Below are positions 2,629-50,978 of a DNA stretch of 64,000 nt, one piece after another. The translations under genes were made by a program, and so were the position numbers. Source of the stretch: Minisyncoccia bacterium (lineage in GTDB: Bacteria; Patescibacteriota; Minisyncoccia; 2-02-FULL-40-12; IGHO2-01-FULL-4-A); the NCBI GenBank assembly GCA_041499075.1, contig JBGQJN010000001.1, forward strand, positions 10,388 through 74,387, read 5' to 3'. Under the pieces are notes generated by a model. The model had not been told where the DNA came from, searched no databases, and saw only the letters and a program-made list of their open reading frames with translations. Positions within the stretch are counted from its first letter, which is position 1. Every line of letters starts with the position of its first letter.

Positions 2629-3627
2629 TTATACCAAATTTTCGTCTATGGTTTCCAATACCTTTCGCTTAAGATTGTAGCCATTGCCATACTCAAGCAT
2701 GCCCAAGTAAGAATCGGCAACTTCTTTTTTAACACCACAAGAAATCTTTTTAAACATTCGTCTTCTAGTTGTAGTCCTCAAAACTCTGTGATCTGGAAAA
2801 TTGACCCAGCCGAGAAAATCTACACCGGAAGTTATTGTTCTAATTGAGATTTTGTCTTGATGTAATTTCAGATGAAGTTTTCTATCTAAGAACTCCCCTA
2901 TCCTAGATAGAGCCAACCGAAGCCAAACTTTATCTTTGGATAAAACAACAAAGTCGTCAGCATAACGGATATAATATTTGGCACCAAGTTCATGCTTAAT
3001 GAACTGGTCAAACTCATTCATATAAATATTTACAAAAAGCTGGGAGGTCAGATTGCCCAAGGGTAAACCCCTACCATAACCAGCCGAGAAGCTATCAATA
3101 ACTTGCGACAAAAGCAATAATACATCCTGATCGGAAACATATTGAGATAATATGTTTTTCAAAATGACGTGATTAATATTTTCAAAAAACTTTTTGATAT
3201 CACACTTGAGCGTCCAACAAGTTCGGGTGTTGTTACTACTGGCTTGGTAAGCAAAACTTCTGAAATGATTGATAGCTTTGTGCGTTCCCTTGTTTAATCT
3301 GCAGGAAAAAGAATCGGCCACAAAGACCCGATCAAAAAACGGATACAAAATTCTGTAGATAGCATGGTGAAGAAGACGATCTCGGACCGGCGCTTTGTGT
3401 ATATGCCTTGGTTTCGGATCAGAGATATTGAACGCTTGATATCCGCCGTGTTTATATGTATGATTGGCAAGATGCAATTGCAAACTTAATATATTATCCA
3501 TCAGGTTTAACTGAAAGTCCTGCACGTCACGCTTGTTTCGTTTACCTTTAACGAATTCTCGCCAAGCCTCTAGCAAATTATCAACACTAATTATATCCTC
3601 AAATTTATGAGCCAAAATAGTTTTCAT
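2629..3627 (-). CDS. Diversity-generating retroelement reverse transcriptase
   Basis: Contains LPLGNLTSQLFVNIY, where the DGR-specific SQ replaces QG in RT motif 4. Also has the YADDFVV catalytic motif and a DGR-RT-like N-terminus NLLEAWREFVKGKRNKRDV...PVRDRLLHHA. The start is placed at the internal MKTIL (3627); the 383-aa track ORF would overlap avd. Confidence 0.85.
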   Translation of the reverse strand: MKTILAHKFEDIISVDNLLEAWREFVKGKRNKRDVQDFQLNLMDNILSLQLHLANHTYKHGGYQAFNISDPKPRHIHKAPVRDRLLHHAIYRILYPFFDRVFVADSFSCRLNKGTHKAINHFRSFAYQASSNNTRTCWTLKCDIKKFFENINHVILKNILSQYVSDQDVLLLLSQVIDSFSAGYGRGLPLGNLTSQLFVNIYMNEFDQFIKHELGAKYYIRYADDFVVLSKDKVWLRLALSRIGEFLDRKLHLKLHQDKISIRTITSGVDFLGWVNFPDHRVLRTTTRRRMFKKISCGVKKEVADSYLGMLEYGNGYNLKRKVLETIDENLV

Positions 3628-3667: not shown

Positions 3668-4009
3668 ATGTCCATTATCCAAAGATTTGTCGCGGCATAC
3701 AAGCTTTGGCAAGAGTACATCAGCCACTTTCCGAAAAAATCTCGATATACGCTTGGAGGCAAAATTGACTCTCTTTTCATAGATACCGCAGAACTGATGT
3801 TTACTGCAAGTTATCTCACAAAAGACAAGAAACTGCCATATATTCAAAAAGCGTTGGGCACTTTTGATTTATTAAAATTCTTTCTGCAAATAGCTTGGGA
3901 AATCGGATCAATGGATAACAAGAAATATGCTGCGTTATCTGAACCGCTTAGTGAAATAGGAAGAATGCTCGGAGCCTGGTACAAACAAACACAAACCCCG
4001 TCTAAATAG
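3668..4009 (+). CDS. avd: Avd-like accessory variability determinant (four-helix-bundle, 23S rRNA IVS-protein family)
   Basis: 113 aa with FPKKSRYTLGGKIDSLFIDTAELMF...LGTFDLLKFFLQIAWEIG, the pattern of the four-helix-bundle/Avd family. It lies between TR and RT on the opposite strand. Confidence 0.7.
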   Translation: MSIIQRFVAAYKLWQEYISHFPKKSRYTLGGKIDSLFIDTAELMFTASYLTKDKKLPYIQKALGTFDLLKFFLQIAWEIGSMDNKKYAALSEPLSEIGRMLGAWYKQTQTPSK

Positions 4010-4036
4010 GCGGGTTTTGTAAAAATAACATTAGTT

Positions 4037-4168
4037 TCGGACAGCAGCGAAGCGGCAGTTGTCATTCCACCTGTTGTCGTTCCAGTTCAGGTTCAGCTTG
4101 CGCTTCGAGCCGTTCCTGTTGAGGTAAGGCACGTTGCGGTTGTCGTTGCTATTCTGCCACACGGAGCC
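4037..4168 (-). repeat. DGR template repeat (TR)
   Basis: 132 bp, near-identical to 4516-4649 apart from 25 positions. Every one of those is A on the minus strand of TR and G or T in VR. The TR sense strand is rich in AAC codons. Confidence 0.85.
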
Positions 4169-4423
4169 GTGTACAAGATATCATCTTTACCACTGCCCCT
4201 TGAATACTCTCAGGGCTGTATCGTATTTGGGATCTATAATCCTCCAATACCTTGTACCAAGTATTGTTATTTTAAGAGAAACTAGCGAGGCACGCTGAGA
4301 GAAGCCGTAACCGCCCCCATTCTGTCCTGCATAGCTCTAGAATTCGGCCACCGGAAGCCTTAACCGCCGGCAGATTCGCCTAATATCCAGATATATTAGA
4401 ACATATATTTTTATAAAAATGAA

Positions 4424-5120: not shown

Positions 5121-5321
5121 GATCTTTCTCCTTTGTTTGGCTTACCCCTCACCCCATGGATTGCAGGGCCCCAGGCTTGCCGTTTTGGGTACAGCTTACA
5201 GAGCTCAATAAAATAAGCATCTAGAAGCTATACCCAGCCGTAATAAGTAGCCATTTAAAAGTACTATTTTGATAGTTCAATTATAGCAAAATTTAATGAT
5301 AAAGTCAAGCTAGACAAAATA

Positions 5322-9215: not shown

Positions 9216-9877
9216 TGGATGTTTTTCATTATATTCTCGGATATTTTTTGGGCCTCATCTTGGCCATTGACTTCAAAAACCTTATAACCTTTCTGCCGCA
9301 AATAATCAAGTACCGGTTCGGTTTCTATCTTATAGACTTCGTATCTTTCGCTTATTATATCCGGCTTATCAAGCTCTCTAGTTACAAGAAGTGAACCATC
9401 TTTGGGACAAGTGGTCATGCCCTCATACTCTGGTAAGTCCGGAATCGGGTGGCGATTAGCTTGGCAGATACGCCTGGCTGAATTGCGTTTTATCGACTCT
9501 TCTTTGCTCAATACAAGATGAAAGATTTTTATATTGTCATGACCGTATAGTTCTTCAAGCTCTGGCATAATATCTTTTGTTTCGGGCAGTGTACGCAATG
9601 AACCGGAGGTAGTAATACTCTTACCCTGCATAGCTAGTTCTCTGATCTCTTCCTTGAACCAACCAATGAATATGCTTGATGCGATCAATTCTCCGGCAAG
9701 CCATTTTCTTTTTTCTTCCTGCATCTTGGCATCATGAGGTTCGGCGTTTTTGAATTTAGCTTCTATTAATTTGGAGGTTTCTAAATGATAAAATCCTAAT
9801 TTCTCCGCCAAAAGATTCGCCTGGGTTCCCTTGCCGGATCCTGGTGGCCCGATAAAAACTACGACTTCCTTAGACAT
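9212..9877 (-). CDS. adk: Adenylate kinase
   Basis: GPPGSGKGTQ P-loop and a lid domain with Cys. Confidence 0.9.
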   Translation of the reverse strand: MSKEVVVFIGPPGSGKGTQANLLAEKLGFYHLETSKLIEAKFKNAEPHDAKMQEEKRKWLAGELIASSIFIGWFKEEIRELAMQGKSITTSGSLRTLPETKDIMPELEELYGHDNIKIFHLVLSKEESIKRNSARRICQANRHPIPDLPEYEGMTTCPKDGSLLVTRELDKPDIISERYEVYKIETEPVLDYLRQKGYKVFEVNGQDEAQKISENIMKNIQ

Positions 9878-21142: not shown

Positions 21143-21478
21143 TTACATTTTTATTTCAATATCTACACCGGCTGGCAAATTAAGATTCATTAAGGAATCT
21201 ATGATCTTGGAATTGGGTTGGGAAATATCAATCAGGCGCTGATGGACGCGCATCTCAAACTGCTCACGCGAATTCTTATCAATGAAGGCCGCGCGATTGA
21301 CGGTATACTTGTGGATCTGCGTCGGCAACGGCACCGGACCGGTGACATGGCCGCCGTTGCGCTCAATCGTCTCCACGATCTGCTTGGCAGATTTATCTAT
21401 GATCTTATTATCATACGCCTTGAGCTTGATTCTTATACGCTGGGCTAATTCCGGTGGTTTGTCTTTTTTAGTTGGCAT
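21143..21478 (-). CDS. rpsJ: Ribosomal protein S10
   Basis: Sequence and position upstream of rplC. Confidence 0.9.
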
Positions 21479-23834: not shown

Positions 23835-24368
23835 ATGAATCTAAACAAAGTTTTCTTAATCGGCCGGCTGGCCGCAGATCCGGAATCGCGTACAACACCA
23901 TCGGGGCAGACCGTGACTACTTTAAGATTGGCCACAAATCGCGTTTGGAATAACAGAACTACTGGCGAGAAACAAGAACAGGTTGAGTTTCACACCGTGA
24001 TTGCCTGGGGTAATCTCGCCGAAATATCCTCCAAATACTTACGCAAAGGCCAGCTGGCGCTTTTTGAAGGCCGGATACAGACAAGGTCATGGCAAGGCCA
24101 AGATGGTGTCAAGCGTTATCGCACCGAGATCGTAGCCGACGGCTTACAGTTGGGACCCAAGGCCAGCAATATGCCTGGTAGTTATACGCCAAGGGACTCA
24201 ACATCGGATCAGCAAGTCCAGAGCAATAAACCAGCTTCCGCCGCTAGCACAATAAAAGAAGAAGATATTCCGGTTATCAACGAAGACTCCCCTATTACCA
24301 GCGATCCGGTTATAGCCGATAGCGAAGTGGAGGAAAGTGAAATTAATCTTAAGGATATACCTTTTTAA
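23835..24368 (+). CDS. ssb: Single-stranded DNA-binding protein
   Basis: OB-fold N-terminus LIGRLAADPESRTTPSGQTVTTLRLATNR...FHTVIAWGNLAE and an acidic C-terminal tail ending DIPF. Confidence 0.9.
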   Translation: MNLNKVFLIGRLAADPESRTTPSGQTVTTLRLATNRVWNNRTTGEKQEQVEFHTVIAWGNLAEISSKYLRKGQLALFEGRIQTRSWQGQDGVKRYRTEIVADGLQLGPKASNMPGSYTPRDSTSDQQVQSNKPASAASTIKEEDIPVINEDSPITSDPVIADSEVEESEINLKDIPF

Positions 24369-24369
24369 T

Positions 24370-24582
24370 ATGGTTTGCATTTGTTGCCAGGAAAAAATTA
24401 ATCACGTTGATTATAAAAATACGGACATCCTCCGTAAGTTTGTCTCGGGCCAATTTAAGATCTCCTCTTCTGCCCGCACCGGCCTGTGCCAGAACCATCA
24501 GCGCATGGTCGCCAACGCCGTTAAACTCGCCAGATATATGGCACTGATGCCATATACGAAGTTACAGACATTGAAAAAATAG
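24370..24582 (+). CDS. rpsR: Ribosomal protein S18 (copy 1)
   Basis: MVCICCQEKINHVDYKNTDILRKFVS...; starts 1 nt after the ssb stop. Confidence 0.9.
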   Translation: MVCICCQEKINHVDYKNTDILRKFVSGQFKISSSARTGLCQNHQRMVANAVKLARYMALMPYTKLQTLKK

Positions 24583-24586
24583 TTGA

Positions 24587-24650
24587 CGAGTGTAGGCGAG
24601 GAAATACTGAGGCCAACAGGCCGAACGTGTCGCTCGCCCCTCAATTTTTC
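24587..24650 (+). repeat. Intergenic repeat family 2 (one ~30-nt unit GGCGAGGAAATACTGAGGCCAACAGGCCGAACGTG in stem-loop), directly after rpsR stop
   Basis: Shares TTGACGAG...GGCGAGGAAGTACTGAGGCTAGCAGGCCGAACGTGCCGCTCGC with 56848-56925 and, inverted, 29400-29521. Confidence 0.6.
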
Positions 24651-24867
24651 TTTCAACATCTGTCCCCGGCAAATAATATATTGATTTTCTCATTTCCCTG
24701 GATAAAAAATCATACCCCTTCCGCTACGCAGAGCCCCGACATTAGTCAGGGCTCTGCTTTGCCACATCCTAATTTATTTATCAGCGGAAGATATCAAAAA
24801 TCAATATTTATTTGTACGGCACCATATGGATGACGAGGATCAGAGAGTGTCGCTCTAGATCTCGCTA

Positions 24868-24896
24868 CAAAAACAAAACCGACATGCGATGTCGGC
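24868..24896 (-). terminator. Rho-independent terminator after 125-aa island gene
   Basis: ccgacatgcgatgtcgg hairpin followed by a U-run on the minus strand. Confidence 0.5.
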
Positions 24897-24900
24897 AGGA

Positions 24901-25278
24901 TTATTGAGCTAGAGCAACCTCGGGCTCGGGATCTGGCAATTGATCGGATTGCAAGAACTTACCAAGCAAAACTTCTCTCTCGAGACATGCTAAAGTTTTA
25001 TGGCCATAATTAACACCTTCATCATACCAAGGGATACCTTCTTCGTAAATCTCACGGGTGAATCCAGCGGCAATTAATTTTTCTTTATCAGAACTATACA
25101 ATTTATCCCAGATGACTTTGGCTTCTACATCAAAAGCTCTAGCTAGCGGGCAATTACATGTACCATGGCTACCGACACCTTTAAGCGCCTCTTCTTTTCT
25201 AGTAAATAACAGTCTAATCCATTGCTGCACATTTGCCGCTAATTTTTTAAAGATCCGCTCAAGCTCTGGATCCATCAT
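24901..25278 (-). CDS. Hypothetical protein (125 aa) with Cys/His cluster (HGTCNCP...H...C)
   Basis: ORF in the island between the rpsR copies; no recognisable family. Confidence 0.4.
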   Translation of the reverse strand: MMDPELERIFKKLAANVQQWIRLLFTRKEEALKGVGSHGTCNCPLARAFDVEAKVIWDKLYSSDKEKLIAAGFTREIYEEGIPWYDEGVNYGHKTLACLEREVLLGKFLQSDQLPDPEPEVALAQ

Positions 25279-25520
25279 CTTCCGGCTCCTTGTCTGATTG
25301 ATTATCTACCTGGAACTTTACACCATCTAAAATCTTCCGCAAGCCAAATATAAAAGTGCCAAAAGGCACTTTTATATTTGTTAGTTTCAGATGAATGACG
25401 AAAATCAGAGGACATCGCTTTGGCCTGGGGTATCCTTGGATGGGAACAGAAGCGGGTCACCGATACATTAGACGCTAGTATATGCGGACTAAACAACTGT
25501 TTAATCCCCTATCTAAAATA

Positions 25521-26348
25521 TTATGCCCTGTGTATTTCTAATAGATCGCTTAGAACACTGTCCAAGTACATTTTGATTTGTAGAATCTCCGACCGTCCCT
25601 CTCTGTGGCTGTGAGCCGAAAGTGATCCACGTTCATAAACAGCCCTGACTAAACGAGGCACACTTTCATCAACTATTTGAGCAGCCATTTTCGGAGCTTC
25701 CATGGCCGTATCGGGGATTTCTCTGATTTTGAGAATATAGTGTACTTTCTGTTTCATTGTTGGCTGCTTTTCCCCTTCTTCAAATTTAAAGCCAGGGATC
25801 GCCTCAACTTCGGCATCGGGAGCCAAGTGATCCAAAACCTCACGAAGAACCTCTCGCAACTCAGTAGCCGTACCTCGGTATGATGCTCGGTTTTCCTGCA
25901 GGTCAGCAAGTGCTTGTTTATACGATATCGCCGCTCCAGGAACAACCTGTTCAAGCATATTTAGTATAACTTCATCCTGCTGGGAAGTATTTTTTGTGGC
26001 TGTTCCTTGAGTCCCTCCGGAGAGTCGTTGACTATTTAAATATTCGCGAGATATTTCTGCCTCAGCAAGATTTGCTCCAATTTTTGCAAAAACTTTTTTG
26101 TATACTGTTACCGAGGTGCGGGCACTGGCCATTCTCATCAAATCTTGCATCTGCTTGTCCAGCACCTCCGTTGCAACCATGCCAACAACCAGTTCGGGCC
26201 GTAACTCTCGAAAATATCGTTGCACAAAATATCGGATTCGGTTCTGCAGATTAGCAGAACTGATTTGAATAGAATTGGCACGATTTACTCTGGAAAGAAT
26301 CAGTTTTGTTTCGCGCACAATGGAAAGAAAGGTGTCGCTTTCCGACAC
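25521..26348 (-). CDS. Hypothetical protein (275 aa), predicted all-helical; C-terminal R-x5-H motif (VYERGSLSAHSH) reminiscent of HEPN-type RNase/abortive-infection domains
   Basis: ORF in the island; motif-level resemblance only. Confidence 0.35.
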   Translation of the reverse strand: MSESDTFLSIVRETKLILSRVNRANSIQISSANLQNRIRYFVQRYFRELRPELVVGMVATEVLDKQMQDLMRMASARTSVTVYKKVFAKIGANLAEAEISREYLNSQRLSGGTQGTATKNTSQQDEVILNMLEQVVPGAAISYKQALADLQENRASYRGTATELREVLREVLDHLAPDAEVEAIPGFKFEEGEKQPTMKQKVHYILKIREIPDTAMEAPKMAAQIVDESVPRLVRAVYERGSLSAHSHREGRSEILQIKMYLDSVLSDLLEIHRA

Positions 26349-26384
26349 CCCAGGAGATGTGTTAGCAGATTTAATTCTAGCGGC

Positions 26385-26712
26385 GCTTTTTGAAGGCCGG
26401 ATTCAGACAAGATCATGGCAAGGCCAGGATGGCGTCAAACGCTACCGCACCGAGATTGTAGCCGATGGTTTACAACTGGGACCCAAGGCAAGTAATCCAA
26501 GCACTGCGAATTATCAATCAAACAATCAGACATCGAGACCATCCTCCTACACCTCTCCTTCGCATAAAGCTCCGGATGAGCAAAGCAAGTCTTCGGTAAA
26601 GGAAGAAGACATTCCCGTTATCAATGAAGACTCTCCCATTACCAGCGATCCGGTTATTTCTGATAGTGATGTGGAAGAAACGGAAATTAATTTAAAAGAT
26701 ATACCGTTCTAA
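26385..26712 (+). pseudogene. Diverged duplicate of the ssb 3' half (lacks OB-fold N-terminus)
   Basis: About 85-90% nucleotide identity to 24060-24368. Encodes LFEGRIQTRSWQGQDGVKRYRTEIVADGLQLGPKASN...EEDIPVINEDSPITSDPVI...INLKDIPF. The unrelated upstream frame supplies an ATG. Confidence 0.7.
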
Positions 26713-26814
26713 TCAACGAATAGCGAATATGTACGAATATACCAATATACGAAATGGATTAATTAGTACTTTCGTAAATTAGTATAAATTCGTAATTCGT
26801 TGATAGCGACAAGC

Positions 26815-27024
26815 ATGTGTATTTGTTGCCAGGAAAAAATTAATCACGTTGATTACAAAAATACGGACATCCTCCGCAAGTTTGTTTCCGGTCAATTTAA
26901 GATTTCTTCTTCGGCCCGCACCGGCCTGTGCCAGAATCATCAGCGCATGGTCGCCAACGCCGTCAAACTCGCCCGGTATATGGCGTTGATGCCTTATACC
27001 AAGTTACAAACTATAAAAAAATAA
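26815..27024 (+). CDS. rpsR: Ribosomal protein S18 (copy 2, intact paralog; many synonymous differences vs copy 1)
   Basis: MCICCQEKINHVDYKNTDILRKFVSGQFKISSSARTGLCQNHQRMVANAVKLARYMALMPYTKLQTIKK. Confidence 0.75.
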   Translation: MCICCQEKINHVDYKNTDILRKFVSGQFKISSSARTGLCQNHQRMVANAVKLARYMALMPYTKLQTIKK

Positions 27025-27063
27025 AAACTTCACTTGCCCCATACTTATTACCATAAGTGTGGG

Positions 27064-27104
27064 GTGGCCCTGATGCCGTACACCAAACTCCAGACTATAA
27101 AGAA
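27064..27104 (+). pseudogene. Third remnant of the rpsR 3' end (last ~13 codons LMPYTKLQTIKK*)
   Basis: ctgatgccgtacaccaaactccagactataaagaaataa matches copy 1 at 24540-24582 and copy 2 at 26983-27024, with synonymous changes. Confidence 0.6.
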
Positions 27105-27146
27105 ATAAAAAAAACCGCCAACCAGCGGATTTTTTATTTCTTATTT

Positions 27147-27629
27147 TTAGTAACCTCTCTGATCTTGCTGGAACCTTTCTTCTATTTTTCTTTTTTCGTT
27201 TTCTAAGTCGCTGATTTTCTTTGAGTATTCATCTATCTGCCTCCCGAGATGCGCTTTCATCTCTTGCGTTACAGCTCGGCTATCTTTAAGAGCACTTGCC
27301 CAATCCTCATATTCCCTTCTCCTATTTGGATCCGTAGCATCAACCGGTGACAGTGCGGCATTAAGTTCGTATTCCTTGTCCAATATTTTCCTCATATCTG
27401 GGCCCCTCGATATTTCTAGCCTTCGCTTAAAATCCTCAATTTCAGCAGGGATTTCTGATAATCTCTTTTCGAGCTTAGGTTTTTCCACCACAAATTTCCT
27501 CTTGGCTTCTTCTAGCTTGGCTTGTCTAGCCGCTTCACGTTCTTTTCTAGCTACTTCTTCCATCGGCTCTGGTTCTTTTTCCGCTTCTGCTTTGGGCTTT
27601 ATACCTAAAAATTCTTTAAATGTTGGCAT
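27147..27629 (-). CDS. Hypothetical coiled-coil protein (160 aa, Lys/Glu-rich)
   Basis: ORF; no recognisable family; downstream of recA. Confidence 0.4.
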   Translation of the reverse strand: MPTFKEFLGIKPKAEAEKEPEPMEEVARKEREAARQAKLEEAKRKFVVEKPKLEKRLSEIPAEIEDFKRRLEISRGPDMRKILDKEYELNAALSPVDATDPNRRREYEDWASALKDSRAVTQEMKAHLGRQIDEYSKKISDLENEKRKIEERFQQDQRGY

Positions 27630-27678
27630 GTTCCCAATCTACCACTAGTGTTTTTTTTTGCAATTCGGTTATCAACAT

Positions 27679-27720
27679 AGCTCCGTATATAATTAGCATA
27701 TGCTAATTATATACGGAGCT
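27679..27720. promoter_or_regulatory. Perfect 42-bp palindrome (candidate operator)
   Basis: agctccgtatataattagcata|tgctaattatatacggagct; between the recA stop and the 27147..27629 start. Confidence 0.5.
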
Positions 27721-27746
27721 ATCAGTTAAAGGCATTAATCTAAAGC

Positions 27747-27776
27747 AAAAAGGACTCCTTTTCAAGAGTCCTTTTT
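27747..27776 (-). terminator. Rho-independent terminator after recA
   Basis: aaaaaggactc cttttcaa gagtccttttt. Confidence 0.6.
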
Positions 27777-27872
27777 GCTGACACGCAGATTTAGCTCGTA
27801 ATTTATAGAGCTATTCCACCGTTAATCCAAGTATAGCAAAATGGAGTGGTAGAGTCAATACTTGTTATCAAC

Positions 27873-28907
27873 CTATGCCTCCTTGACTGCCGCCGCTTTG
27901 CGGACGGCACCAAGTATCTCCTTCTCAATCTTGGGATTTTCTTTGAGGAATTGGCGGGCGCCTTCAATGCCCTGACCGAGCTTCTGTTCACCGAAGTTAT
28001 ACCAGGCACCGGCCTTAGCAACCACGCCGAGAATCACACCGGTATTAACCAGATCGGCATGTCGGGAGATGCCCTCGTTATAGAGAATATCAAACTCTGC
28101 CACACGGAATGGCGCGGCAACTTTGTTTTTGACGATTTTGACTTTGACTCGATTGCCGATAATTTTCTCGCCGGATTGTATCTGCGCGGCTCGGCGGATC
28201 TCAATTCTGACTGAAGCATAAAATTTAAGAGCAAGGCCACCGGTTGTCGTTTCCGGATTGCCGAACATAACACCAATCTTGTGCCTTATTTGGTTTATAA
28301 ACAAAACCGTGGTGTTGGTTTTGGAAACCACGCCGGTCAGTTTGCGTAAAGCATGTGACATCAGCCGCGCTTGTAGGCCCATGTGCTGTTGGTCCATTTC
28401 ACCTTCAATCTCGGCACGCGGTGTGAGCGCGGCCACGGAATCTACTACTACAAGTTGAATCCCACCAGACCTTACCAAAGTTTCTACTATCTCAAGCGCT
28501 TGCTCGCCGTTGTCCGGTTGAGAAATTAAAAGATCGTTAACCCTGACGCCGATTTTTTTGGCATATTCCGGGTCAAGCGCGTGCTCGGCATCGACATATG
28601 CCGCCACACCGCCGGCCTTCTGGACTTCAGCTACGAGATGCAAAGCCAAAGTCGTCTTACCGGAACTTTCCGGACCATAGACTTCTACCACGCGTCCTCG
28701 TGGAATACCGCCAACACCCAATGCCAGGTCCAGCGAGATCGAGCCGGTTGGTATAACGTCGACATCAACTCTCCGCGCGTCACCAAGTTTCATAATCGAG
28801 CCGTCACCGTATTTTTCCTGTATCTCCCTGACAGCGAGATCCACGCTCCTGTTACTTAGATCAGACTTACTCTGCTTCTCCTCCTTCTTATTTTTTTCTT
28901 TAACCAT
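27873..28907 (-). CDS. recA: Recombinase A
   Basis: GPESSGKTT Walker A; L1/L2 loops; 344 aa. Confidence 0.95.
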
Positions 28908-32328: not shown

Positions 32329-32586
32329 ATGATCTTAGCCATTGAACTTAGCCAGGATACAATTACTCTGGAGCTGTCAGACAAAGGCAGGGCTGTTGAC
32401 ATTGAAACAGCAAAGTACTATCATGATATAGACGATGTGTTGATAACTAGTATTGACAGACTTTTAAAAAGGAATAAGATTGACATCAAATCACTAAAAA
32501 GCTATAGAATACTTGGTAATTTAGGTTCTGACAGCACTTCATACAAAATAGCCCAGGCTTTCGTAGAGGGCTTAAAAGTTAGGTAA
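32329..32586 (+). CDS. Short TsaB/YeaZ-like fragment (N-terminal domain only, 85 aa); possibly degenerate
   Basis: MILAIELSQD...YRILGNLGSDSTSYKIAQAFVEGLKV aligns with the ILAIDTS...VGPGSFTGLRIG pattern of TsaB but stops after ~85 aa. Confidence 0.3.
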   Translation: MILAIELSQDTITLELSDKGRAVDIETAKYYHDIDDVLITSIDRLLKRNKIDIKSLKSYRILGNLGSDSTSYKIAQAFVEGLKVR

Positions 32587-44172: not shown

Positions 44173-44550
44173 CTAGAATGCGCCACCGCTCAAGCTAGAT
44201 ACAACGTAGTTTGCGGTAGCAAGTATCAAACCAACAGCCACCACCACCACTATTCCTATGAAACCATGAAGTATCGTGCCTCTGGCTTCCTCCGCCTTTT
44301 TCGCGTCACCTCGGGCAAGCATGTATTTCAAACCACCATAAACTATGAAAATAACTCCGATCGTGACACCAACTACCATCAAATATGTAGCAGCCTGGTT
44401 GATGATGCCAACAATACCATTTAATGTTACTGCTCCCGTTGTAGAACCAGGATTAGGAATAGGCACCTTTGCTTGTGCTAATGCTAATAACGGTAAGGCA
44501 AACCATGCCAACGGACTTGCCATCTTAATCATTTTTTTAATTTTATTCAT
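44173..44550 (-). CDS. VirB2/TrbC-like pilin (125 aa: signal peptide plus two hydrophobic helices separated by a charged loop)
   Basis: LNGIVGIINQAATYLMVVGVTIGVIFIVYGGLKYMLARGDAKKAEEARGTILHGFIGIVVVVAVGLILA; this architecture is typical of T4SS pilins. Confidence 0.55.
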   Translation of the reverse strand: MNKIKKMIKMASPLAWFALPLLALAQAKVPIPNPGSTTGAVTLNGIVGIINQAATYLMVVGVTIGVIFIVYGGLKYMLARGDAKKAEEARGTILHGFIGIVVVVAVGLILATANYVVSSLSGGAF

Positions 44551-44677
44551 ACGACACCCCCCTTCAGACTAGAATCTAGCGCTAGTTTTTAGTTACTAGT
44601 GCTTATCGCCGGCTGAACTAAAAACTAAACCTAGAACCTAGAAATCTTAATATTAAATTCTTGTTTCTATAGACAAA

Positions 44678-45700
44678 TTAACAAACTAGCGGAATAATGG
44701 AAACACTTGAACCTACCGCGTAAGCAACAGTAGCCATTATAACATACACGCCTATGATTACCAGTAAACCTATCAACACATGGCCAAAATTCTTTGTAGC
44801 GGCGGCAAATGCCGTAGGATTGCCTCTGGCATGCATGAAACGCAAACCGGCAATGACAATGAAAATAACCATTATGCCGTCGGCGGCGGTAAGCAGATAG
44901 CAGGCAAGCTTGGTGATTATCTTAAAAACATCCTGAATGGTCAGGTCAACCCCCGGCAAACCGCTGGTACCCGTAGTAGTCCCCGCTCCCGTCCCCGCTC
45001 CCGTACCCGTACCCGTTCCCGTACCTGTCCCAGTTCCAGTACCTGTCCCAGTTCCAGTACCTGTGCCTGTACCAGTGCCACCACCGGCAGGATTGGTAAC
45101 ACAAGTTGTGCCTGTCCAACTACAAGCTGGATTAAGGTTACATCTATTACCCGTACAATCGTTCGGCACTGGATAGTTAGCACAGCTTGTAATAGTTGAA
45201 CAATTAGGATTGATGGTTGTAGCCCGGGTCTGGATGTTAAATTGCGGTGAGGACCAGGTTTGACCTGGATTGAGACTGGCCAGAGTATCTAAAGCAGCTT
45301 TGGAAGTCCCCTGGCTTGATGCCGAACAATAGAAGAAACCAACGTAACGATTCTGCTGTTGATCAACACCCGAGCTAAAATTATAAGTTATATCTTGACC
45401 GCTGCCAGGAGACAGATACTCATAGTTAATGGCCGATCCGGCAATATAGTGCCTGACGGCATTAAAGAGTGAACCGGAATTGCAGGTAGGAGGTGAGCCA
45501 TTCGATTGTTGAAATACAGAAAAACTTAAATTAACAGTTTGAGCCGGGTCAACACCGGTCGCTCCAGTGGCAAGATCATCGCTTTCGTTGACACAAATAC
45601 CGTTATTACAACTTTGAGCGGTGTTGGTAGCAGAAACATTGTTTCCAATTAAAAACGTTGCAATGATTATTAGAAGCAATATTTTGTAGAAATTTTTCAT
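44678..45700 (-). CDS. Secreted Cys-rich protein with (Gly-Thr)n linker and C-terminal VirB2/TrbC-like two-helix module
   Basis: Signal peptide; many Cys; GTGTGTGTGTGTGTGTGTGTGTGTGAGTGAGTTTGT linker; C-terminus IMVIFIVIAGLRFMHARGNPTAFAAATKNFGHVLIGLLVIIGVYVI. Confidence 0.55.
   Translation of the reverse strand: MKNFYKILLLIIIATFLIGNNVSATNTAQSCNNGICVNESDDLATGATGVDPAQTVNLSFSVFQQSNGSPPTCNSGSLFNAVRHYIAGSAINYEYLSPGSGQDITYNFSSGVDQQQNRYVGFFYCSASSQGTSKAALDTLASLNPGQTWSSPQFNIQTRATTINPNCSTITSCANYPVPNDCTGNRCNLNPACSWTGTTCVTNPAGGGTGTGTGTGTGTGTGTGTGTGTGTGTGAGTGAGTTTGTSGLPGVDLTIQDVFKIITKLACYLLTAADGIMVIFIVIAGLRFMHARGNPTAFAAATKNFGHVLIGLLVIIGVYVIMATVAYAVGSSVSIIPLVC
44950..45075 (-). repeat. Imperfect hexanucleotide (GGNACN)n coding repeat encoding Gly-Thr linker, including an 18-nt perfect tandem duplication
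   Basis: Plus strand ccccgctcccgtccccgctcccgtacccgtacccgttcccgtacctgtcccagttccagtacctgtcccagttccagtacctgtgcc. Confidence 0.8.
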
Positions 45701-45704
45701 TGAA

Positions 45705-46835
45705 TTACGGGCCTTTTAAGCTCAGTATACTTTGGATTAAGCTGACAAATCCTTTGCCAATCAATACAATTGCCAGACCGATGACGGCATAGGTCAAAGC
45801 TTTTTTGCCCAACTCATAACGTTTAGGGCTACCGCCGGAAGTTAGCAATAAAATACCGGCATAAATTATTACAATCACCGCAAGCGGTATTGAAAGATTA
45901 AAAATCCAGGTACCAATGATGTTGACTAGATCTTGAAAGGTACTGATACCGATGGGGTTTTGTAAAGTAAAGGTTTGGTTGCCACCGCCAGTTGTGCCAC
46001 CGCCAGTTGTGCCACCGCCACCACCACCACCAGCAGCAGCACAGCCTGTACAATTATCGGTGCCCGCTCCCGGCACCACAACACAAACATTACTTTGACA
46101 TTCCTTGTGGCTTTGCGTCGACACCTCTTTTCCGCATAAAGTGCTGTCGCTTAGTTTCGCACATTGTGTCCTATCCGTGCAACCAGTCGTATTGACACAG
46201 GTACTGTCGTTTTTGGAATCACAAATATAAACAGTTTTCCCAACGGCATCGGGTCCGGTACACGCGAAGATGTTGTATGTGCCCGATGTTAGTTTTATAG
46301 AATACTGGCCGCTCGAGGTAAGAATTGTACAATTGTTTGTAAAAAAGCCGCCGGTTTTGCAAACCACAACATAGGCTTTTACTGGCATGCTATCCCCGGC
46401 TGTAAAACCTCCTATATTGGAATCTATAAGATCAGATGGTGTAACCGTAACAGAACTGCCATAAGGCGTCGGCTTATTCTGCGTCATATTTATAGTATTG
46501 GTTGCATACCTATTTCCTAGACCGTTTTTTGCTTGGGGCGGTGCATCGCTTAAATCAAGTGAATAGGCTTGGTAAAAATCATAGTAAACATAAAACTTAT
46601 TAGAACAAATGGTACCGTCAACGCTACAATAGCCATCGCATGTTCCACCGTTAACAAAGCCGCCCATAGTCACTTGGCTTGTGATCGTAAGCGGTCGGTT
46701 AAAAGACAAATTGCCCGAAGGAAGATTTACTTGAATATTTGCCGTACAATTAGCACTTGCAATTTTTACCGGAATCAAAACAAACAAAAAACCCGCGATT
46801 AATGTAACGATTAAAATTTTATAAGTATTCCGCAT
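45705..46835 (-). CDS. Secreted Cys-rich protein with Gly-rich linker and C-terminal VirB2/TrbC-like two-helix module
   Basis: Signal peptide; AAAGGGGGGGTTGGGTTGGG linker; C-terminus LAVIVIIYAGILLLTSGGSPKRYELGKKALTYAVIGLAIVLIG. Confidence 0.55.
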   Translation of the reverse strand: MRNTYKILIVTLIAGFLFVLIPVKIASANCTANIQVNLPSGNLSFNRPLTITSQVTMGGFVNGGTCDGYCSVDGTICSNKFYVYYDFYQAYSLDLSDAPPQAKNGLGNRYATNTINMTQNKPTPYGSSVTVTPSDLIDSNIGGFTAGDSMPVKAYVVVCKTGGFFTNNCTILTSSGQYSIKLTSGTYNIFACTGPDAVGKTVYICDSKNDSTCVNTTGCTDRTQCAKLSDSTLCGKEVSTQSHKECQSNVCVVVPGAGTDNCTGCAAAGGGGGGGTTGGGTTGGGNQTFTLQNPIGISTFQDLVNIIGTWIFNLSIPLAVIVIIYAGILLLTSGGSPKRYELGKKALTYAVIGLAIVLIGKGFVSLIQSILSLKGP

Positions 46836-46884
46836 ATTTAATTTGATTGGATTTCTTTTATCAAGGGCTCTAAAATGTCAAACG

Positions 46885-47227
46885 TTAGTTGGTTAGCAGG
46901 TCTTGCGCAAGGCGATCAATCTTTTCCGGGATCAGTTGAATTATTAAATCAATATCGGCTGTAAACCGCGGCCTACCCCAAATCGCAAGGGCAAAACTTC
47001 CGGTAATAACGTAGGAAATTCTTAAATTATCAAGGATTGCGGCTATTATTGTCAGTAAGTTTTCTTGCTCCATAATTAAAATATGCCGGGTTAAGCTTGC
47101 GGGCCAACTTAAAGAAATTGCTGACTATTTTTACTTTTTGTTCGGCCGACATTTTTTGAAAAACCTCGTCCTGAATATCTTGAGCGGTTTTTATTTTGGC
47201 CGTTTGAGCTGATGACATATTGGGCAT
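46885..47227 (-). pseudogene. Possible remnant of a small two-gene module: 65-aa ORF plus truncated minimal nucleotidyltransferase (MNT)-like ORF (GSFALAIWGRPRFTADIDL)
   Basis: Two overlapping short ORFs; the second has the GS...DxD nucleotidyltransferase motif but only 62 aa. Confidence 0.3.
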
Positions 47228-47274
47228 TGTACTTGCTATTAATTCCCTTATGATATTTTACTACCTAAAACGAA

Positions 47275-47958
47275 TTACGGCAATTTAATCTGTGGAGGAA
47301 GAGGCGGCAATGGGTTGCTAGGTCCGATATTTTTCTTGGTAACCGAACGTCTGACCAGCCAAATGACAATCACGATGGCAATTCCGCCCAACAAGTAAAG
47401 TATCGCCCCCAGCCAATTACTGCCGCTCTTGGCCGCCAGTTGCGGTGTAACGGAAGTACTCGGCGGCGGTTTCAAATGGCAATCAGTCGGACAGTTGTCG
47501 GAATTCTCACCGACATCCGAGTTACAAATATTATCATCATTGCAAAATGAGCTCGCTGAAACGCTCAAAGTCAAAAGTAATTGATTGTTGCTGTCATAAA
47601 AATTGACATTGTCACCATCAGCAAAATATGGTCCCTTTACCGAAAATCTGCCCTTAACAATACTCGTATCAAATTGAAAAGTAGCCAGTATTTTATTTTG
47701 GAAATTAACTATTTCTCCGTGATAAGGGTTGGCTGTTTTTAAAACTGGCACTAAATAGGGTTCGGCGACAATGTCGTATTGAAACTTAACATCCCGATCG
47801 GCGACTAGCTGATTATTAGAAAAGTAAAGATGAAAAAGATATGTAAAACCACTATCACTTGCAGTTTTGGTATCAGCGCTAGTTTTGTACGCGTAGAACC
47901 CGGCTACTGAAACTAGCCCTATGAATAAAAATACAAATATTTTTTTAATCTTAAGCAT
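47275..47958 (-). CDS. Secreted, C-terminally membrane-anchored hypothetical protein (227 aa, Cys-rich stalk, Pro-rich tail)
   Basis: Signal peptide, C-terminal TM segment LGAILYLLGGIAIVIVIWLV. Confidence 0.45.
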   Translation of the reverse strand: MLKIKKIFVFLFIGLVSVAGFYAYKTSADTKTASDSGFTYLFHLYFSNNQLVADRDVKFQYDIVAEPYLVPVLKTANPYHGEIVNFQNKILATFQFDTSIVKGRFSVKGPYFADGDNVNFYDSNNQLLLTLSVSASSFCNDDNICNSDVGENSDNCPTDCHLKPPPSTSVTPQLAAKSGSNWLGAILYLLGGIAIVIVIWLVRRSVTKKNIGPSNPLPPLPPQIKLP

Positions 47959-47963
47959 ATTAA

Positions 47964-50900
47964 TTAAAACCCGGGATTAGCAGTACAATAAATAATCTTG
48001 GTTGCCCCGGCCTTGGTTTGATTATAACCTAGCTTAATATCGCTGTCTCCATTGCAAATAGTATGCGCGTTATCATCGTAAAGACACTCCCACTTGCGGA
48101 CATTATTAGTGCCATCACAACTTTTTTCAGGAGGCAGACAATTAGCACTGTCGGCACAGGCACCGGCAGCAGTCCATCCTCCATTATAACCGGCATAAAT
48201 ATTTCTGACTTGAGAACCGCAGGTTCCAGCGGCTATTACATTGATAAAGTTCGCGCCGATGCAGATACTCGCATCGGCATTTATGGGATTAGTTAGCCAA
48301 GCGCGCGTAACCATACATCTATTAAGAATGCTGTCCCAACGGCCTCCGGCAGCAGTACAACTTAGCGAGCTATTTTGAATTGGACAGCCTCGACTATTCT
48401 GGTTGGCGGTGTCAACGTTAAGCTGCATTAAACCGAATGAAGACGGTGGATTGTCAAATGATACCGCACCGACATTACAGGAAGATTCGGCCAATATTAT
48501 CGCTTTCAAAATATTAGCCGTCGCCGCTCCGTTGTTGGTACCATACTTATTAGCAGAAGCGGCATATTGGGCGCTACAGTTGCCGTTACTACATGCTGTT
48601 GATTGGCCCTGACAAAGATTTAAACTGCTAAACATGCAAATTGCTCCCGTTGTTGTTCCCGTTCCTGTCCCTGTGCCTGTTCCAGTTCCTGTCCCAGTAG
48701 TTGTCTGGCTGGGATTAGTACAAATAACCGTGTTCCAGTTTTGCCCAAATAAGCTATTGCCCGCAATAGATTTGAGTACGGAATTGGTGATCATCCATGC
48801 CGCAAAAATTATTATCAGCCCCCAAGTAGTATTTTTAAAAAACGTTTTGCCGGTCCCGACCCAGCCAGGATTGAATCCGCCGAGTAATATCATTGTTCCG
48901 GCGATCAGATACATCAGCACCGCGATTGCCGGCACAAGCGTGAAAAGAACAAAATTAATCACCCGGCTCAATAGAGCCAGGATATCGCATGGTTGGCATG
49001 GCTGAGCTTCAGCGGCAGTATAGCCAGGAATTGGAACAGGATTGCCGCTAGAATCAATGGCTGAATAGTGGCCGCAAGGTACCAATGATGTTTTAGTTCC
49101 CGCCGCGTTGGTAGTCGCACCCGTACCGGTCCCCGTCCCTGTACCTGTACCTGTACCTGTACCCGTGCCTGTCCCCGTACCCGTGGTAGCTGCCTGAGCA
49201 ATATTAGGTCCAAAGGCAATGTCCGCTGCCGCTTTTTGCGCAGGATTACTAGAATCGGTAGCTTCCACGCCAACGCCATTGGCAGGCACAGCGGCTTGGG
49301 CAATATTAATAATATTTCGAGGGAAATTTACGGCTATGGTCCCGGTAATTAACCCATCCGAACTTAAATTGAAACCAGTAGGTAAATTTCCGCGTATTAT
49401 CTTCCAGGTATAGGGTGCAGTTCCATTTTGAACTGTCAGTTGAGCCTGATAACTAGTTGCCTGCGCAACGTTAATGAGCTTAGACGGCGATTTGGGTGTT
49501 GCTAATGATATTGTTCTGCTTGTGTCAGGGATAAATAATGAGTTGCCGGGTATAGACAGGTCGGGCGAAGAAATCTTAAACCTAATGGTCGTCGATTTAT
49601 CAGCATTAGCGCCGACAAGCAACCATTCTACCCAAGAACCATTGAGACTGGCCTCATCGAATCCGGCCCAGCTATTCTCAAGTGACCAGTTGCCACCGCC
49701 ATCTGTGGTCAGCGGGGCAGCAATGCCTAAATCTCCGACCGGCGTACAGCCCAGAGAGCTGCCATTTTGTTCGGCGCATATCTGAAGTGTGGCGTTGGCA
49801 GGTGCACCCGTTAGATTAAGCCGCCAAGAATCTATATTCCAAAATCCGGGATTTCGAAATGGCTTGGTGATATTAGTAATCGTCAACTTAGGACCACAGG
49901 CTGAACCGCCGGTAAGGCCGCAAATGTAGTCACCCGCAGGCGTCAGTGTCGCGCTGGAATCATAGAGTCCGAACTGTCCGCCAGCATCAAGTAGATTCCA
50001 GACGAAAGCGTATTTGACTCCCGAGTCCACGGCCACTTGTGTCACGATTGCCACTTTACTTTCGATATCCTGCCTGCTTCCTTGATCAAAACCGTACTCA
50101 CCGATTACCAGATTGCCGGAATTCTTACCGGCAGAGGAGATAACACTTCTTATCAAACTGAGGTCGTTCCTTAATTGAGTGCCATCGTCGCCATTGTAAA
50201 GTGCGTTAATTGATTCGTAAGATGAATAGGAGTAATAGTCGGCGTTAACTGCCGGTATGACATCGTAGAGAACGCTTAGTAAACCCCGGTCTTTCAAATT
50301 ATGAACAATATTGAATTCCACGGCACTGAAAACATTGGAGGCACCAGATGATTTTATGCCTGCCGTGCGCGCATTGATCCATTTCTCGAAACCAGCCATA
50401 GAGTTCAGGTAGCTCGGGCAACCGGCAGCAGTAGCACCAAATGCCGCACCGCAATAGATGTCGTTATCACCCTCCCAGTTTGAAATGATAAATGTTTTGT
50501 TGGGATAATTGGTGGCCAGATAACTTGCAAAATTAGCATATTCGTTTTGAATACGCTGGGTATTAGCTGCTGTGAAAAAGCTAGGATTGAGATAATTCTT
50601 AGTAACACAATCAGCAAAAGAAACACCGTCATAAGCAGTAATCATAATCACATTAAAGTTTGGGTCGCTCAATAGTGTATTGAAATCCGCCCTCCGCGCT
50701 AAACTTGTAAGGGAAAAATTGCTAATGCAACTCCCGCCACCGTAATCCTTGTCTGATTGCGGACCCATTACTATTCTTACGTTTTTAGGTCCTAAATCCT
50801 GCAATAGCATATCACCAGCCTGCAGCATGCCACTAGGCTGATTGCTTATTCTGCCGGCCCAAAAATATGCCCCGACATTATTGGCAGTAAGGGCTAAGGA

Positions 50901-50978
50901 GTGTGTTATGCCAACAGAAAAGACTCCAACAACAATTAGGAGGGTAACCGCTAAGATTTTAGATGCATTATTATTCAA
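47964..50978 (-). CDS. Giant multidomain surface protein (1004 aa): GH5-like (clan GH-A) glycoside hydrolase, Ig-like/cadherin-like domain, (Thr-Gly)n linker, VirB2/TrbC-like two-helix module, second linker, C-terminal lytic transglycosylase (SLT) domain
   Basis: NWEGDND and GEYG catalytic-region motifs; GNLPTGFNLSSDGLITGT; two TGTGTG... linkers; FVLFTLVPAIAVLMYLIAGTMILLGG...WGLIIIFAAWMI; ILKAIILAESSCNVGAVSFDNPPSSFGLMQLN (SLT E-S...GLMQ motif). Confidence 0.6.
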   Translation of the reverse strand: MNNNASKILAVTLLIVVGVFSVGITHSLALTANNVGAYFWAGRISNQPSGMLQAGDMLLQDLGPKNVRIVMGPQSDKDYGGGSCISNFSLTSLARRADFNTLLSDPNFNVIMITAYDGVSFADCVTKNYLNPSFFTAANTQRIQNEYANFASYLATNYPNKTFIISNWEGDNDIYCGAAFGATAAGCPSYLNSMAGFEKWINARTAGIKSSGASNVFSAVEFNIVHNLKDRGLLSVLYDVIPAVNADYYSYSSYESINALYNGDDGTQLRNDLSLIRSVISSAGKNSGNLVIGEYGFDQGSRQDIESKVAIVTQVAVDSGVKYAFVWNLLDAGGQFGLYDSSATLTPAGDYICGLTGGSACGPKLTITNITKPFRNPGFWNIDSWRLNLTGAPANATLQICAEQNGSSLGCTPVGDLGIAAPLTTDGGGNWSLENSWAGFDEASLNGSWVEWLLVGANADKSTTIRFKISSPDLSIPGNSLFIPDTSRTISLATPKSPSKLINVAQATSYQAQLTVQNGTAPYTWKIIRGNLPTGFNLSSDGLITGTIAVNFPRNIINIAQAAVPANGVGVEATDSSNPAQKAAADIAFGPNIAQAATTGTGTGTGTGTGTGTGTGTGTGATTNAAGTKTSLVPCGHYSAIDSSGNPVPIPGYTAAEAQPCQPCDILALLSRVINFVLFTLVPAIAVLMYLIAGTMILLGGFNPGWVGTGKTFFKNTTWGLIIIFAAWMITNSVLKSIAGNSLFGQNWNTVICTNPSQTTTGTGTGTGTGTGTGTTTGAICMFSSLNLCQGQSTACSNGNCSAQYAASANKYGTNNGAATANILKAIILAESSCNVGAVSFDNPPSSFGLMQLNVDTANQNSRGCPIQNSSLSCTAAGGRWDSILNRCMVTRAWLTNPINADASICIGANFINVIAAGTCGSQVRNIYAGYNGGWTAAGACADSANCLPPEKSCDGTNNVRKWECLYDDNAHTICNGDSDIKLGYNQTKAGATKIIYCTANPGF

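Follow-up and report, generated by a model that had tools for sequence, protein, structure and literature searches.

A single-copy perfect palindrome downstream of recA in a Minisyncoccia genome, tentatively read as a lineage-specific hairpin

The intergenic region downstream of recA in a 64-kb stretch of Minisyncoccia DNA (the whole stretch analyzed, hereafter the window) carries a perfect 46-bp palindrome, which appears from comparison with related loci to be single-copy, hairpin-forming spacer DNA that fills a fast-evolving slot between two conserved blocks, A and B. Most likely, it is neither the operator of a regulon nor an SOS-type site. The explanation that we place first, at somewhat less than even confidence, is that the palindrome is a lineage-specific hairpin of recent origin, born by inverted duplication, i.e., by a template switch, and that any role it has upstream of the promoter P2 in block B is structural at most. 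An origin at the DNA level, and not long-term selection for protein binding, is favored because its 23 base pairs are perfect, it exists as a single copy, it is absent from sister lineages, and the boundaries of the slot are sharp.

Sequence and folding of the palindrome

The original prediction described a perfect 42-bp inverted repeat with the arms agctccgtatataattagcat and atgctaattatatacggagct at positions 27679..27720. This repeat was confirmed, and an inverted-repeat scan extended its perfect symmetry by 2 bases on each side (Table 1). The outer clamps of the palindrome are GC-rich (AGCTCCG/CGGAGCT), and its middle is AT-rich. It exceeds every other perfect inverted repeat of the window in length; arms of 16 nt, belonging to terminator-type hairpins, come next, and all other inverted repeats with arms of at least 14 nt show the A-run/GC-stem/T-run architecture of terminators. 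The chance expectation for 23 successive complementary pairs, calculated from base composition, is ~1e-9 per 64 kb, and the half-site, with up to 3 mismatches allowed, was found in none of 100 dinucleotide-preserving shuffles of the window. Chance is ruled out as the source of the palindrome. The window contains one copy, and the same sequence is present in two separate assemblies of the organism, a 43-kb contig of the JGI metagenome 3300052991 (L001) and a 98-kb contig of the NCBI MAG GCA_041486835.1 (L002), both of which match the window without a difference over 8.5 kb.

As DNA, the palindrome folds into a hairpin of -20.8 kcal/mol (z = -10.5), and in the RNA fold it forms a 21-bp stem; the intergenic region between recA and the next gene folds with a z value of -9.75. 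Of the suggestion that this is a cruciform- or hairpin-forming site, the physical capacity is borne out by these values, and extrusion is favored by the GC clamps and the AT-rich center, both being statements of potential and not of function. Each arm also contains a -10-like TATAAT, but these were rejected as promoters, having no usable -35 or TG extension and not being called by the promoter scan. Rfam gave no match at the gathering threshold, below which only generic hairpins (miRNA precursors) matched the palindrome. When the intergenic region was compared with plasmids and phages by BLAST, the few marginal matches were all to the hairpin of the terminator T1.

Table 1. Positions of the features discussed, in the window unless a related locus (L number) is given
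Feature	Position	Strand	Description
recA	27873..28907	(-)	ORF annotation
Promoter P1	27830..27872	(-)	GTTGATAAC, 27872..27864; -35 TTGACT, 27858..27853; 17-nt spacer; TGcTATACT, -10 at 27835..27830
Candidate small RNA	27740..27823	(-)	~85 nt; 5' hairpin ATAGCTC-N10-GAGCTA (27814..27792), then T1
Terminator T1	27744..27779	(-)	14-bp-arm hairpin with A and T runs at its sides (bidirectional type); conserved in L019 and L025
Slot spacer	27723..27739	(-)	ATTAATGCCTTTAACTG; 17 nt, unique; with the palindrome, a 63-nt lineage-specific slot
46-bp palindrome	27677..27722	none	Arms ATAGCTCCGTATATAATTAGCAT and ATGCTAATTATATACGGAGCTAT; 23-nt arms, spacer 0, GC 0.30
Promoter block P2	27636..27677	(-)	TGTTGATAA(C), DnaA-box-like, 27677..27668; -35 TTGCAA, 27663..27658; 16-nt spacer; extended -10 TGGTAGATT, 27644..27636
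TGTKGATAAC motif	27668..27677; 32438..32457; L019:5342-5351; L023:121-130	(-) at 27668; (+) at 32438	
Extended -10 to ATG	27627..27644; L023:155-171; L025:~2856-2875	(-) in window and L025	
160-aa ORF, orphan coiled-coil gene	27147..27629	(-)	ATG 48 nt from the palindrome edge
Bidirectional terminator	27100..27140	none	Counterpart of the recA/rpsR terminator of L014 and L021
Slot tRNA or tRNA-like gene	L023:6-78; L019:~5177-5256; L025:~2953-3031	(-) in L025	
Nested ssb-rpsR duplications	23835..27111		Intact ssb and rpsR; partial ssb-rpsR copy, 26382..27024; third rpsR 3' fragment, 27065..27111
rpsJ-end perfect hairpin	L014:8579-8629; L021:8811-8861		23-24-nt arms; identical in two species, flanks diverged
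rpsJ end in the window	~21145..21170	(-)	Same coding end, without the inverted copy
MITE-like elements	L003:3681-3905; L015:5061-5222; L018:4298-4497		160-225 bp; imperfect TIRs of 27-35 nt
T4SS-pilin-like protein cluster	44173..50978	(-)	PF18895 domain

Conserved flanks, the variable slot, and neighboring genes

The gene order on the minus strand is ftsK, a 126-aa ORF, recA, a 243-nt intergenic region, the 160-aa ORF, and a terminator. The coordinates agree with the earlier placement of the palindrome between the recA terminator and the start of the 160-aa gene; this is the downstream, not the upstream, side of recA. The proteins nearest to this RecA, at up to ~92% identity, are annotated as Candidatus Yanofskybacteria (Parcubacteria group, CPR). 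The 160-aa gene and the elements before it form a cassette that is carried by three independent relatives, namely L019/L020 (GCA_016185545.1 and an SRA assembly), L023 (an SRA assembly), and L025 (a JGI metagenome contig found through a scan with a conserved 23-mer). RecA is ~92% identical in all of them, and blocks A and B are conserved on both sides of the slot.

The 160-aa protein has no match in Pfam or PHROG and belongs to a small family, with 11 members detected, that is restricted to the Parcubacteria group. Its predicted structure is a two-helix antiparallel coiled coil (pLDDT 85), and the predicted fold contains no DNA-binding domain and has no significant PDB match. A role as an autoregulator is unlikely for a coiled-coil hairpin of this kind. 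A shorter coiled-coil homolog of 111 aa (L008-L013, gene 4001-4336) lies, in many contigs, directly downstream of a DUF87/TrwB-type (VirD4/HerA-like) ATPase gene, the homolog in L003 comes after ftsA-ftsZ, and the window copy comes after ftsK-recA; this repeated proximity to DNA-translocase and division genes may be a functional hint. In another part of the window, a cluster encodes proteins with a T4SS-pilin-like domain, one of which, of 1004 aa, also has an SLT transglycosylase domain.

Block A extends from the recA stop to a TTTAG at 27740, with 85 to 90% identity to L019 and L025, and the similarity to L019/L020 ends sharply at this TTTAG. It contains the promoter P1, a candidate small RNA, and the terminator T1. 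P1 can be considered a promoter footprint because its hexamers (TTGACT and the TG-extended -10) are kept in L019 and L025 while its spacer varies. The candidate small RNA is ~90% conserved in the same two relatives, with base pairs preserved by substitutions, and has no match in Rfam. T1, which lies 22 nt upstream of the palindrome, is predicted to end the transcripts of both recA and P1.

Block B is the promoter block P2, which reads TGTTGATAAC, 4 nt, TTGCAA, a 16-nt spacer, TGGTAGATT, 6 nt, and ATG. The last base of the palindrome is the first base of this block, i.e., the two abut directly. The P2 block is conserved in L023, L025, and L019 and partly in L003; from TGTKGATAAC, where the similarity restarts, as far as the ATG, 46 of 51 positions are identical to those of L023. 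In three lineages, the extended -10 (TGGTAGATT or TGGTAGGCT) stops 6 to 7 nt before the ATG of the coiled-coil gene, and owing to this short distance the coiled-coil mRNA is predicted to be leaderless. The classical DnaA-box consensus is TGTGGATAA, and the TGTKGATAAC motif agrees with it in L019 and L023 and differs from it by one base in the window and in L025. P1 and the region upstream of rpoB (32440) have a longer version in common, TTGATAAC-nAG-TATTGAC, and such sharing of motifs among promoters may reflect DnaA-dependent or other common control. Over the whole window, DnaA-box-like motifs number 20, with 14.8 expected and one at the palindrome site, and they are neither enriched nor clustered. 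The direct repeat of GTTGATAAC that flanks the segment from P1 to the palindrome was considered as the 9-bp target-site duplication of a 187-bp insertion and rejected, because the motif is a recurrent promoter architecture that is also found upstream of rpoB and because TGTKGATAAC is present in the P2 of relatives that have no palindrome.

The contents of the slot between the two blocks differ among the lineages. L023 has a tRNA-Pro(TGG) gene in the slot, followed by a perfect terminator hairpin (T2); the place of this gene is taken in L019 and L025 by a divergent tRNA-like gene, also followed by a perfect T2. The tRNA-like copy of L019 was called by neither ARAGORN nor Rfam, and the L019/L025 copy, as read from its sequence, has an unusual 9-nt anticodon loop (CGTCGACAC). 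The T2 hairpins have perfect arms of 17 to 19 nt; those of L023 and L019 are unrelated in sequence to that of L025, and the distance from T2 to P2 is 1 nt in L025, 6 nt in L023, and 57 nt in L019. Hairpins at the slot position thus turn over fast yet stay perfect. In this genome, the slot has neither the tRNA nor the T2 terminator, and the 64 kb contain no tRNA gene at all. Between the window slot and those of the relatives there is no similarity in sequence, and on this ground the palindrome was rejected as the remnant of a decayed tRNA or of T2. The palindrome is absent from the orthologous loci in which both flanks are conserved (L019, L023, and L025) and from the more distant homologous loci L003, L005, and L006. 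The whole cassette is missing in L014 and L021.

In the latter two loci (RecA 91 to 92% identical), recA and rpsR are convergent, 30 to 41 nt apart, and share one bidirectional terminator, whose counterpart in the window marks the ancestral recA/rpsR junction. In the window, ~3.3 kb separates recA from the intact rpsR, and this stretch contains the cassette of the 160-aa gene, a third rpsR 3' fragment, a partial second ssb-rpsR copy, and a two-gene island. The partial copy is 84 to 90% identical to the intact ssb and rpsR, and the copies bracket the island, which consists of a 125-aa ORF and a 275-aa pPIWI/Aga-nuclease-like protein (PF18165, PDLC02413). Such an arrangement points to integration events that recurred at the 3' end of rpsR. 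The cargo after recA is also different in L015, L018, and L022, and the recA-rpsR gap is an insertion hot spot. MITE-like elements are located downstream of recA in L015 and L018 and upstream of the coiled-coil homolog in L003. The repeats of the L003 and L015 elements have CAGATACAG in common, and none of the elements in L003, L015, and L018 has a match in Rfam.

Origin of the palindrome and alternative explanations

An inverted duplication, made by fold-back synthesis or by template switching during replication, would have given rise to the palindrome in one step, and such a mechanism would give perfectly paired arms at once. Template switching can create a whole hairpin with perfect base pairing from a single event (PMC10710096), and in Escherichia coli, quasipalindromes are made perfect through template switching (PMC7202029). 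A perfect new arm that is absent from sister lineages with conserved flanks, as a template switch would leave, is found at this locus. A second case is seen at the end of rpsJ in L014 and L021, where the last 23 coding nucleotides are repeated exactly, in inverted orientation, in the 23 nt that follow the stop, whereas rpsJ in the window has the coding end alone (Table 1). The rpsJ end is a clear precedent for the creation of long perfect inverted copies in this clade. As to the source of the arm, it resembles the small-RNA hairpin located 90 nt away (ATAGCTC[CG]TATA[T]AATTA; p ~0.007-0.013); the resemblance is weak and gives a weak hint of a local donor. Neither arm was found in any relative or collection searched, as a single-arm outgroup or as a donor.

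After its birth, the palindrome would owe its persistence to being harmless or of slight use, purely as a structure. At the DNA level, it could be extruded as a hairpin or cruciform in the interval from T1 to P2, and in transcripts that read through T1, the perfect 21-bp stem could pause the RNA or mark it for cleavage. In both forms, it would set a boundary on the upstream side of P2, in the place taken by a terminator hairpin in the relatives, and no sequence-specific binding protein would be necessary. The palindrome is not a functional terminator replacement for T2, because the features of a terminator are missing: its center is AT-rich, the ends of its stem run into GTTGATAAC or CAGTTAAAG with no T-run, and it was not called by the terminator scan.

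There is a counterpoint to a purely structural role. The rpsJ-end hairpin has stayed identical despite diverged flanks, and therefore long perfect hairpins can be under selection in this clade; by analogy, the palindrome might have a specific function under selection. In addition, its placement right upstream of a conserved promoter block is also expected of an activator or repressor site. A bolder proposal, which we regard as speculative and rather unlikely, is that Yanofskybacteria-type CPR genomes repeatedly make perfect hairpins with ~23-nt arms de novo by inverted duplication and keep some of them as functional structured elements. The palindrome would then be a newborn cis-element in the position of the lost tRNA and terminator, serving as a cruciform or RNA-duplex switch for the leaderless, DnaA-box-bearing P2, and the rpsJ-end hairpin would have come from the same process at an earlier time.

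The operator for SOS-like control of the downstream gene that had been proposed found no support. With up to 3 mismatches allowed, neither the half-site nor the inner 18-mer, the middle 14-mer, or the outer clamps occur beyond the palindrome in the 64-kb window, the upstream region of recA included, apart from one chance-level match inside a gene at 9351, and no copy of any of them is present in 25 fetched related loci. Exact searches with a 19-mer half-site gave no match in a genome collection (596 Gb of representative genomes) or in a metagenome collection, and a 17-mer half-site gave none in viral contigs. The palindrome contains no CTGT, ACAG, GAAC, or GTTC on direct reading, and the earlier statement that it matches neither the CTGT-N8-ACAG nor the GAAC-N4-GTTC type of LexA box is correct. 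A scan of ~30 window ORFs turned up neither LexA nor an HTH regulator. Within the 64 kb and the collections searched, the half-site is single, and the palindrome is absent from the orthologous loci where both flanks are conserved; these are the two outcomes that the original prediction had set against itself. Of the general features of an operator, dyad symmetry beside a promoter is present, at -48 to -93 from the ATG of the 160-aa gene and abutting P2; conservation in orthologous promoters is not, since L023, L025, and L019 have kept P2 and have no palindrome.

A dedicated local operator or activator site, at which a dimeric or tetrameric protein would bind the dyad, centered at -70.5 from the ATG (the presumed start), and control P2 only, is unlikely, although it comes next after a template-switch origin. 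It would account for the perfect dyad symmetry, for the contact with a conserved promoter block in a range (-48 to -93) typical of upstream activator and repressor sites, and for the nested symmetry (inner TTAGCATATGCTAA, outer AGCTCCG/CGGAGCT), which on a reading of the sequence could fit two dimers. However, all orthologous P2 promoters (L023, L025, L019, L003, and L005) are devoid of the palindrome, the 64 kb hold no further site, no regulator gene is found among the neighbors or the scanned ORFs, and the downstream protein is a plain coiled coil without a DNA-binding fold. In addition, all 23 positions of the arm are paired, far more than a dimeric operator needs, and 46 perfectly symmetric positions greatly exceed what protein recognition would maintain.

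The palindrome could instead be a selected hairpin at the RNA level, transcribed by read-through from recA or P1 or from the opposite strand, in which the 21- to 23-bp duplex would be a processing site for a double-strand-specific RNase or a stability element. RNase III-type enzymes usually require a substrate of at least about two helical turns, and the stem, of about two turns, fits this minimum. The strong fold of the intergenic region (z = -9.75) and the AT-rich hairpin at the rpsJ end of L014 and L021, which lies inside the rpsJ gene cluster, is presumably transcribed, and has been kept identical, are also in line with an RNA element. Nevertheless, with the strong T1 located 22 nt upstream and the P2 start downstream, the palindrome falls in a predicted non-transcribed gap, and it is not conserved in relatives, which makes an RNA-level hairpin rather improbable.

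tRNA genes are classic integration targets, and the relatives carry a tRNA gene at the position of the palindrome. The palindrome may thus be thought of as a footprint of recombination or mobile DNA, either the target or scar of a site-specific recombinase or a hairpin-forming transposase left by the loss of the tRNA and T2 or a minimal 40-bp palindromic MITE with a TA duplication. The recA-rpsR gap is a hot spot in which the cargo differs per lineage, and three nested rpsR 3' ends are found in the window; MITE-like elements with TIRs are present in the same region of L015, L018, and L003, and the sequence itself allows the reading TA-[40 bp]-TA. We consider this origin quite improbable. The palindrome is a single copy with no related sequence in the 596 Gb of genomes, the metagenome collection, or the viral contigs, and the window has no integrase or transposase nearby. 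Its perfect symmetry leaves no asymmetric core of the sort that gives recombinase sites their direction, and the TA flanks may be no more than part of the palindrome, TA being itself palindromic and indistinguishable from an extension of the symmetry.

An assembly or library artifact, such as a fold-back chimera, might be suspected in a metagenome-assembled genome, and the L019 and L020 contigs break in the same region, but it is very improbable, given that two separate assemblies with contigs of different length (43 kb and 98 kb) show no difference across the site, that the relatives are collinear with both flanks, and that the window has no second occurrence of the arm, leaving no source for a chimeric copy. 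Least credible of all is a chromosome-maintenance site, be it an unwinding element of an origin, adjoining a DnaA box, or a dif-like Xer site in the vicinity of ftsK, to which the adjacent TGTKGATAA (the classical DnaA-box consensus in L019 and L023), the AT-rich center, and the proximity of ftsK (2 kb) might point, but against which stand the unenriched and unclustered DnaA-box-like motifs (20 versus 14.8 expected), the lack of a GC-skew switch at 27.7 kb, the absence of the palindrome from relatives that retain the DnaA-like box, and a 46-bp perfect symmetry unlike that of 28-bp dif sites with an asymmetric center. The origin reading was rejected on the first two of these observations, and a dif/Xer or tyrosine-recombinase core was rejected for want of an asymmetric 6- to 8-bp center and of a GC-skew switch.

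Significance and comparison with known systems

Taken alone, the palindrome is a minor feature of an ordinary kind, being a perfect inverted repeat that is confined to one lineage and lies in a hypervariable spacer, and the present evidence indicates no new regulatory system. It may serve as a worked example in which a striking palindrome beside recA appears to be a lineage-specific slot filler and not an SOS box. If hairpins in reduced CPR genomes do arise regularly by inverted duplication, organisms that are poor in regulators would gain new terminators, processing sites, and promoter-proximal structures at little cost. The neighboring elements, namely the candidate small RNA, the tRNA-like gene, the leaderless P2 with its DnaA-box-like motif, and the rpsJ-end hairpin, may be more promising than the palindrome itself.

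Among known systems, LexA boxes and other dyad operators of dimeric regulators share with the palindrome their dyad symmetry and their position adjoining a promoter. The palindrome differs from them in being downstream of recA, single, unconserved, without a nearby regulator, and 2 to 3 times as long as a typical operator. Its inner core has ends like the TTAGCA/TGCTAA that we take to be those of CIRCE (HrcA) and of Xanthomonas-type LexA boxes, but the spacing is wrong. The target sites of protelomerases, presumably long perfect palindromes of 40 to 56 bp with an AT-rich center in phages and plasmids, are similar in form, but the palindrome lies among chromosomal housekeeping genes, with unique flanks that are collinear with those of the relatives; it has no similarity to phages or plasmids, and no such enzyme was found among the scanned ORFs. 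The multiple copies that characterize REP and MITE families are not seen, there being one copy in 64 kb and none in the 25 related loci or the collections. Intrinsic bidirectional terminators, represented here by T1 and by the T2 of L019, L023, and L025, resemble the palindrome in that it, too, is a perfect, long-armed hairpin, lying just upstream of P2 in the position of T2; unlike them, it has no GC-rich core beside a T-run and no flanking A/T tracts. The remaining comparison is with template-switch duplications of the quasipalindrome type. The palindrome differs from these in having no identifiable ancestral arm or donor, with the mechanism being inferred and not reconstructed, and it is like them in that its arms are fully paired and lineage specific between conserved flanks, with the rpsJ end providing a second case.
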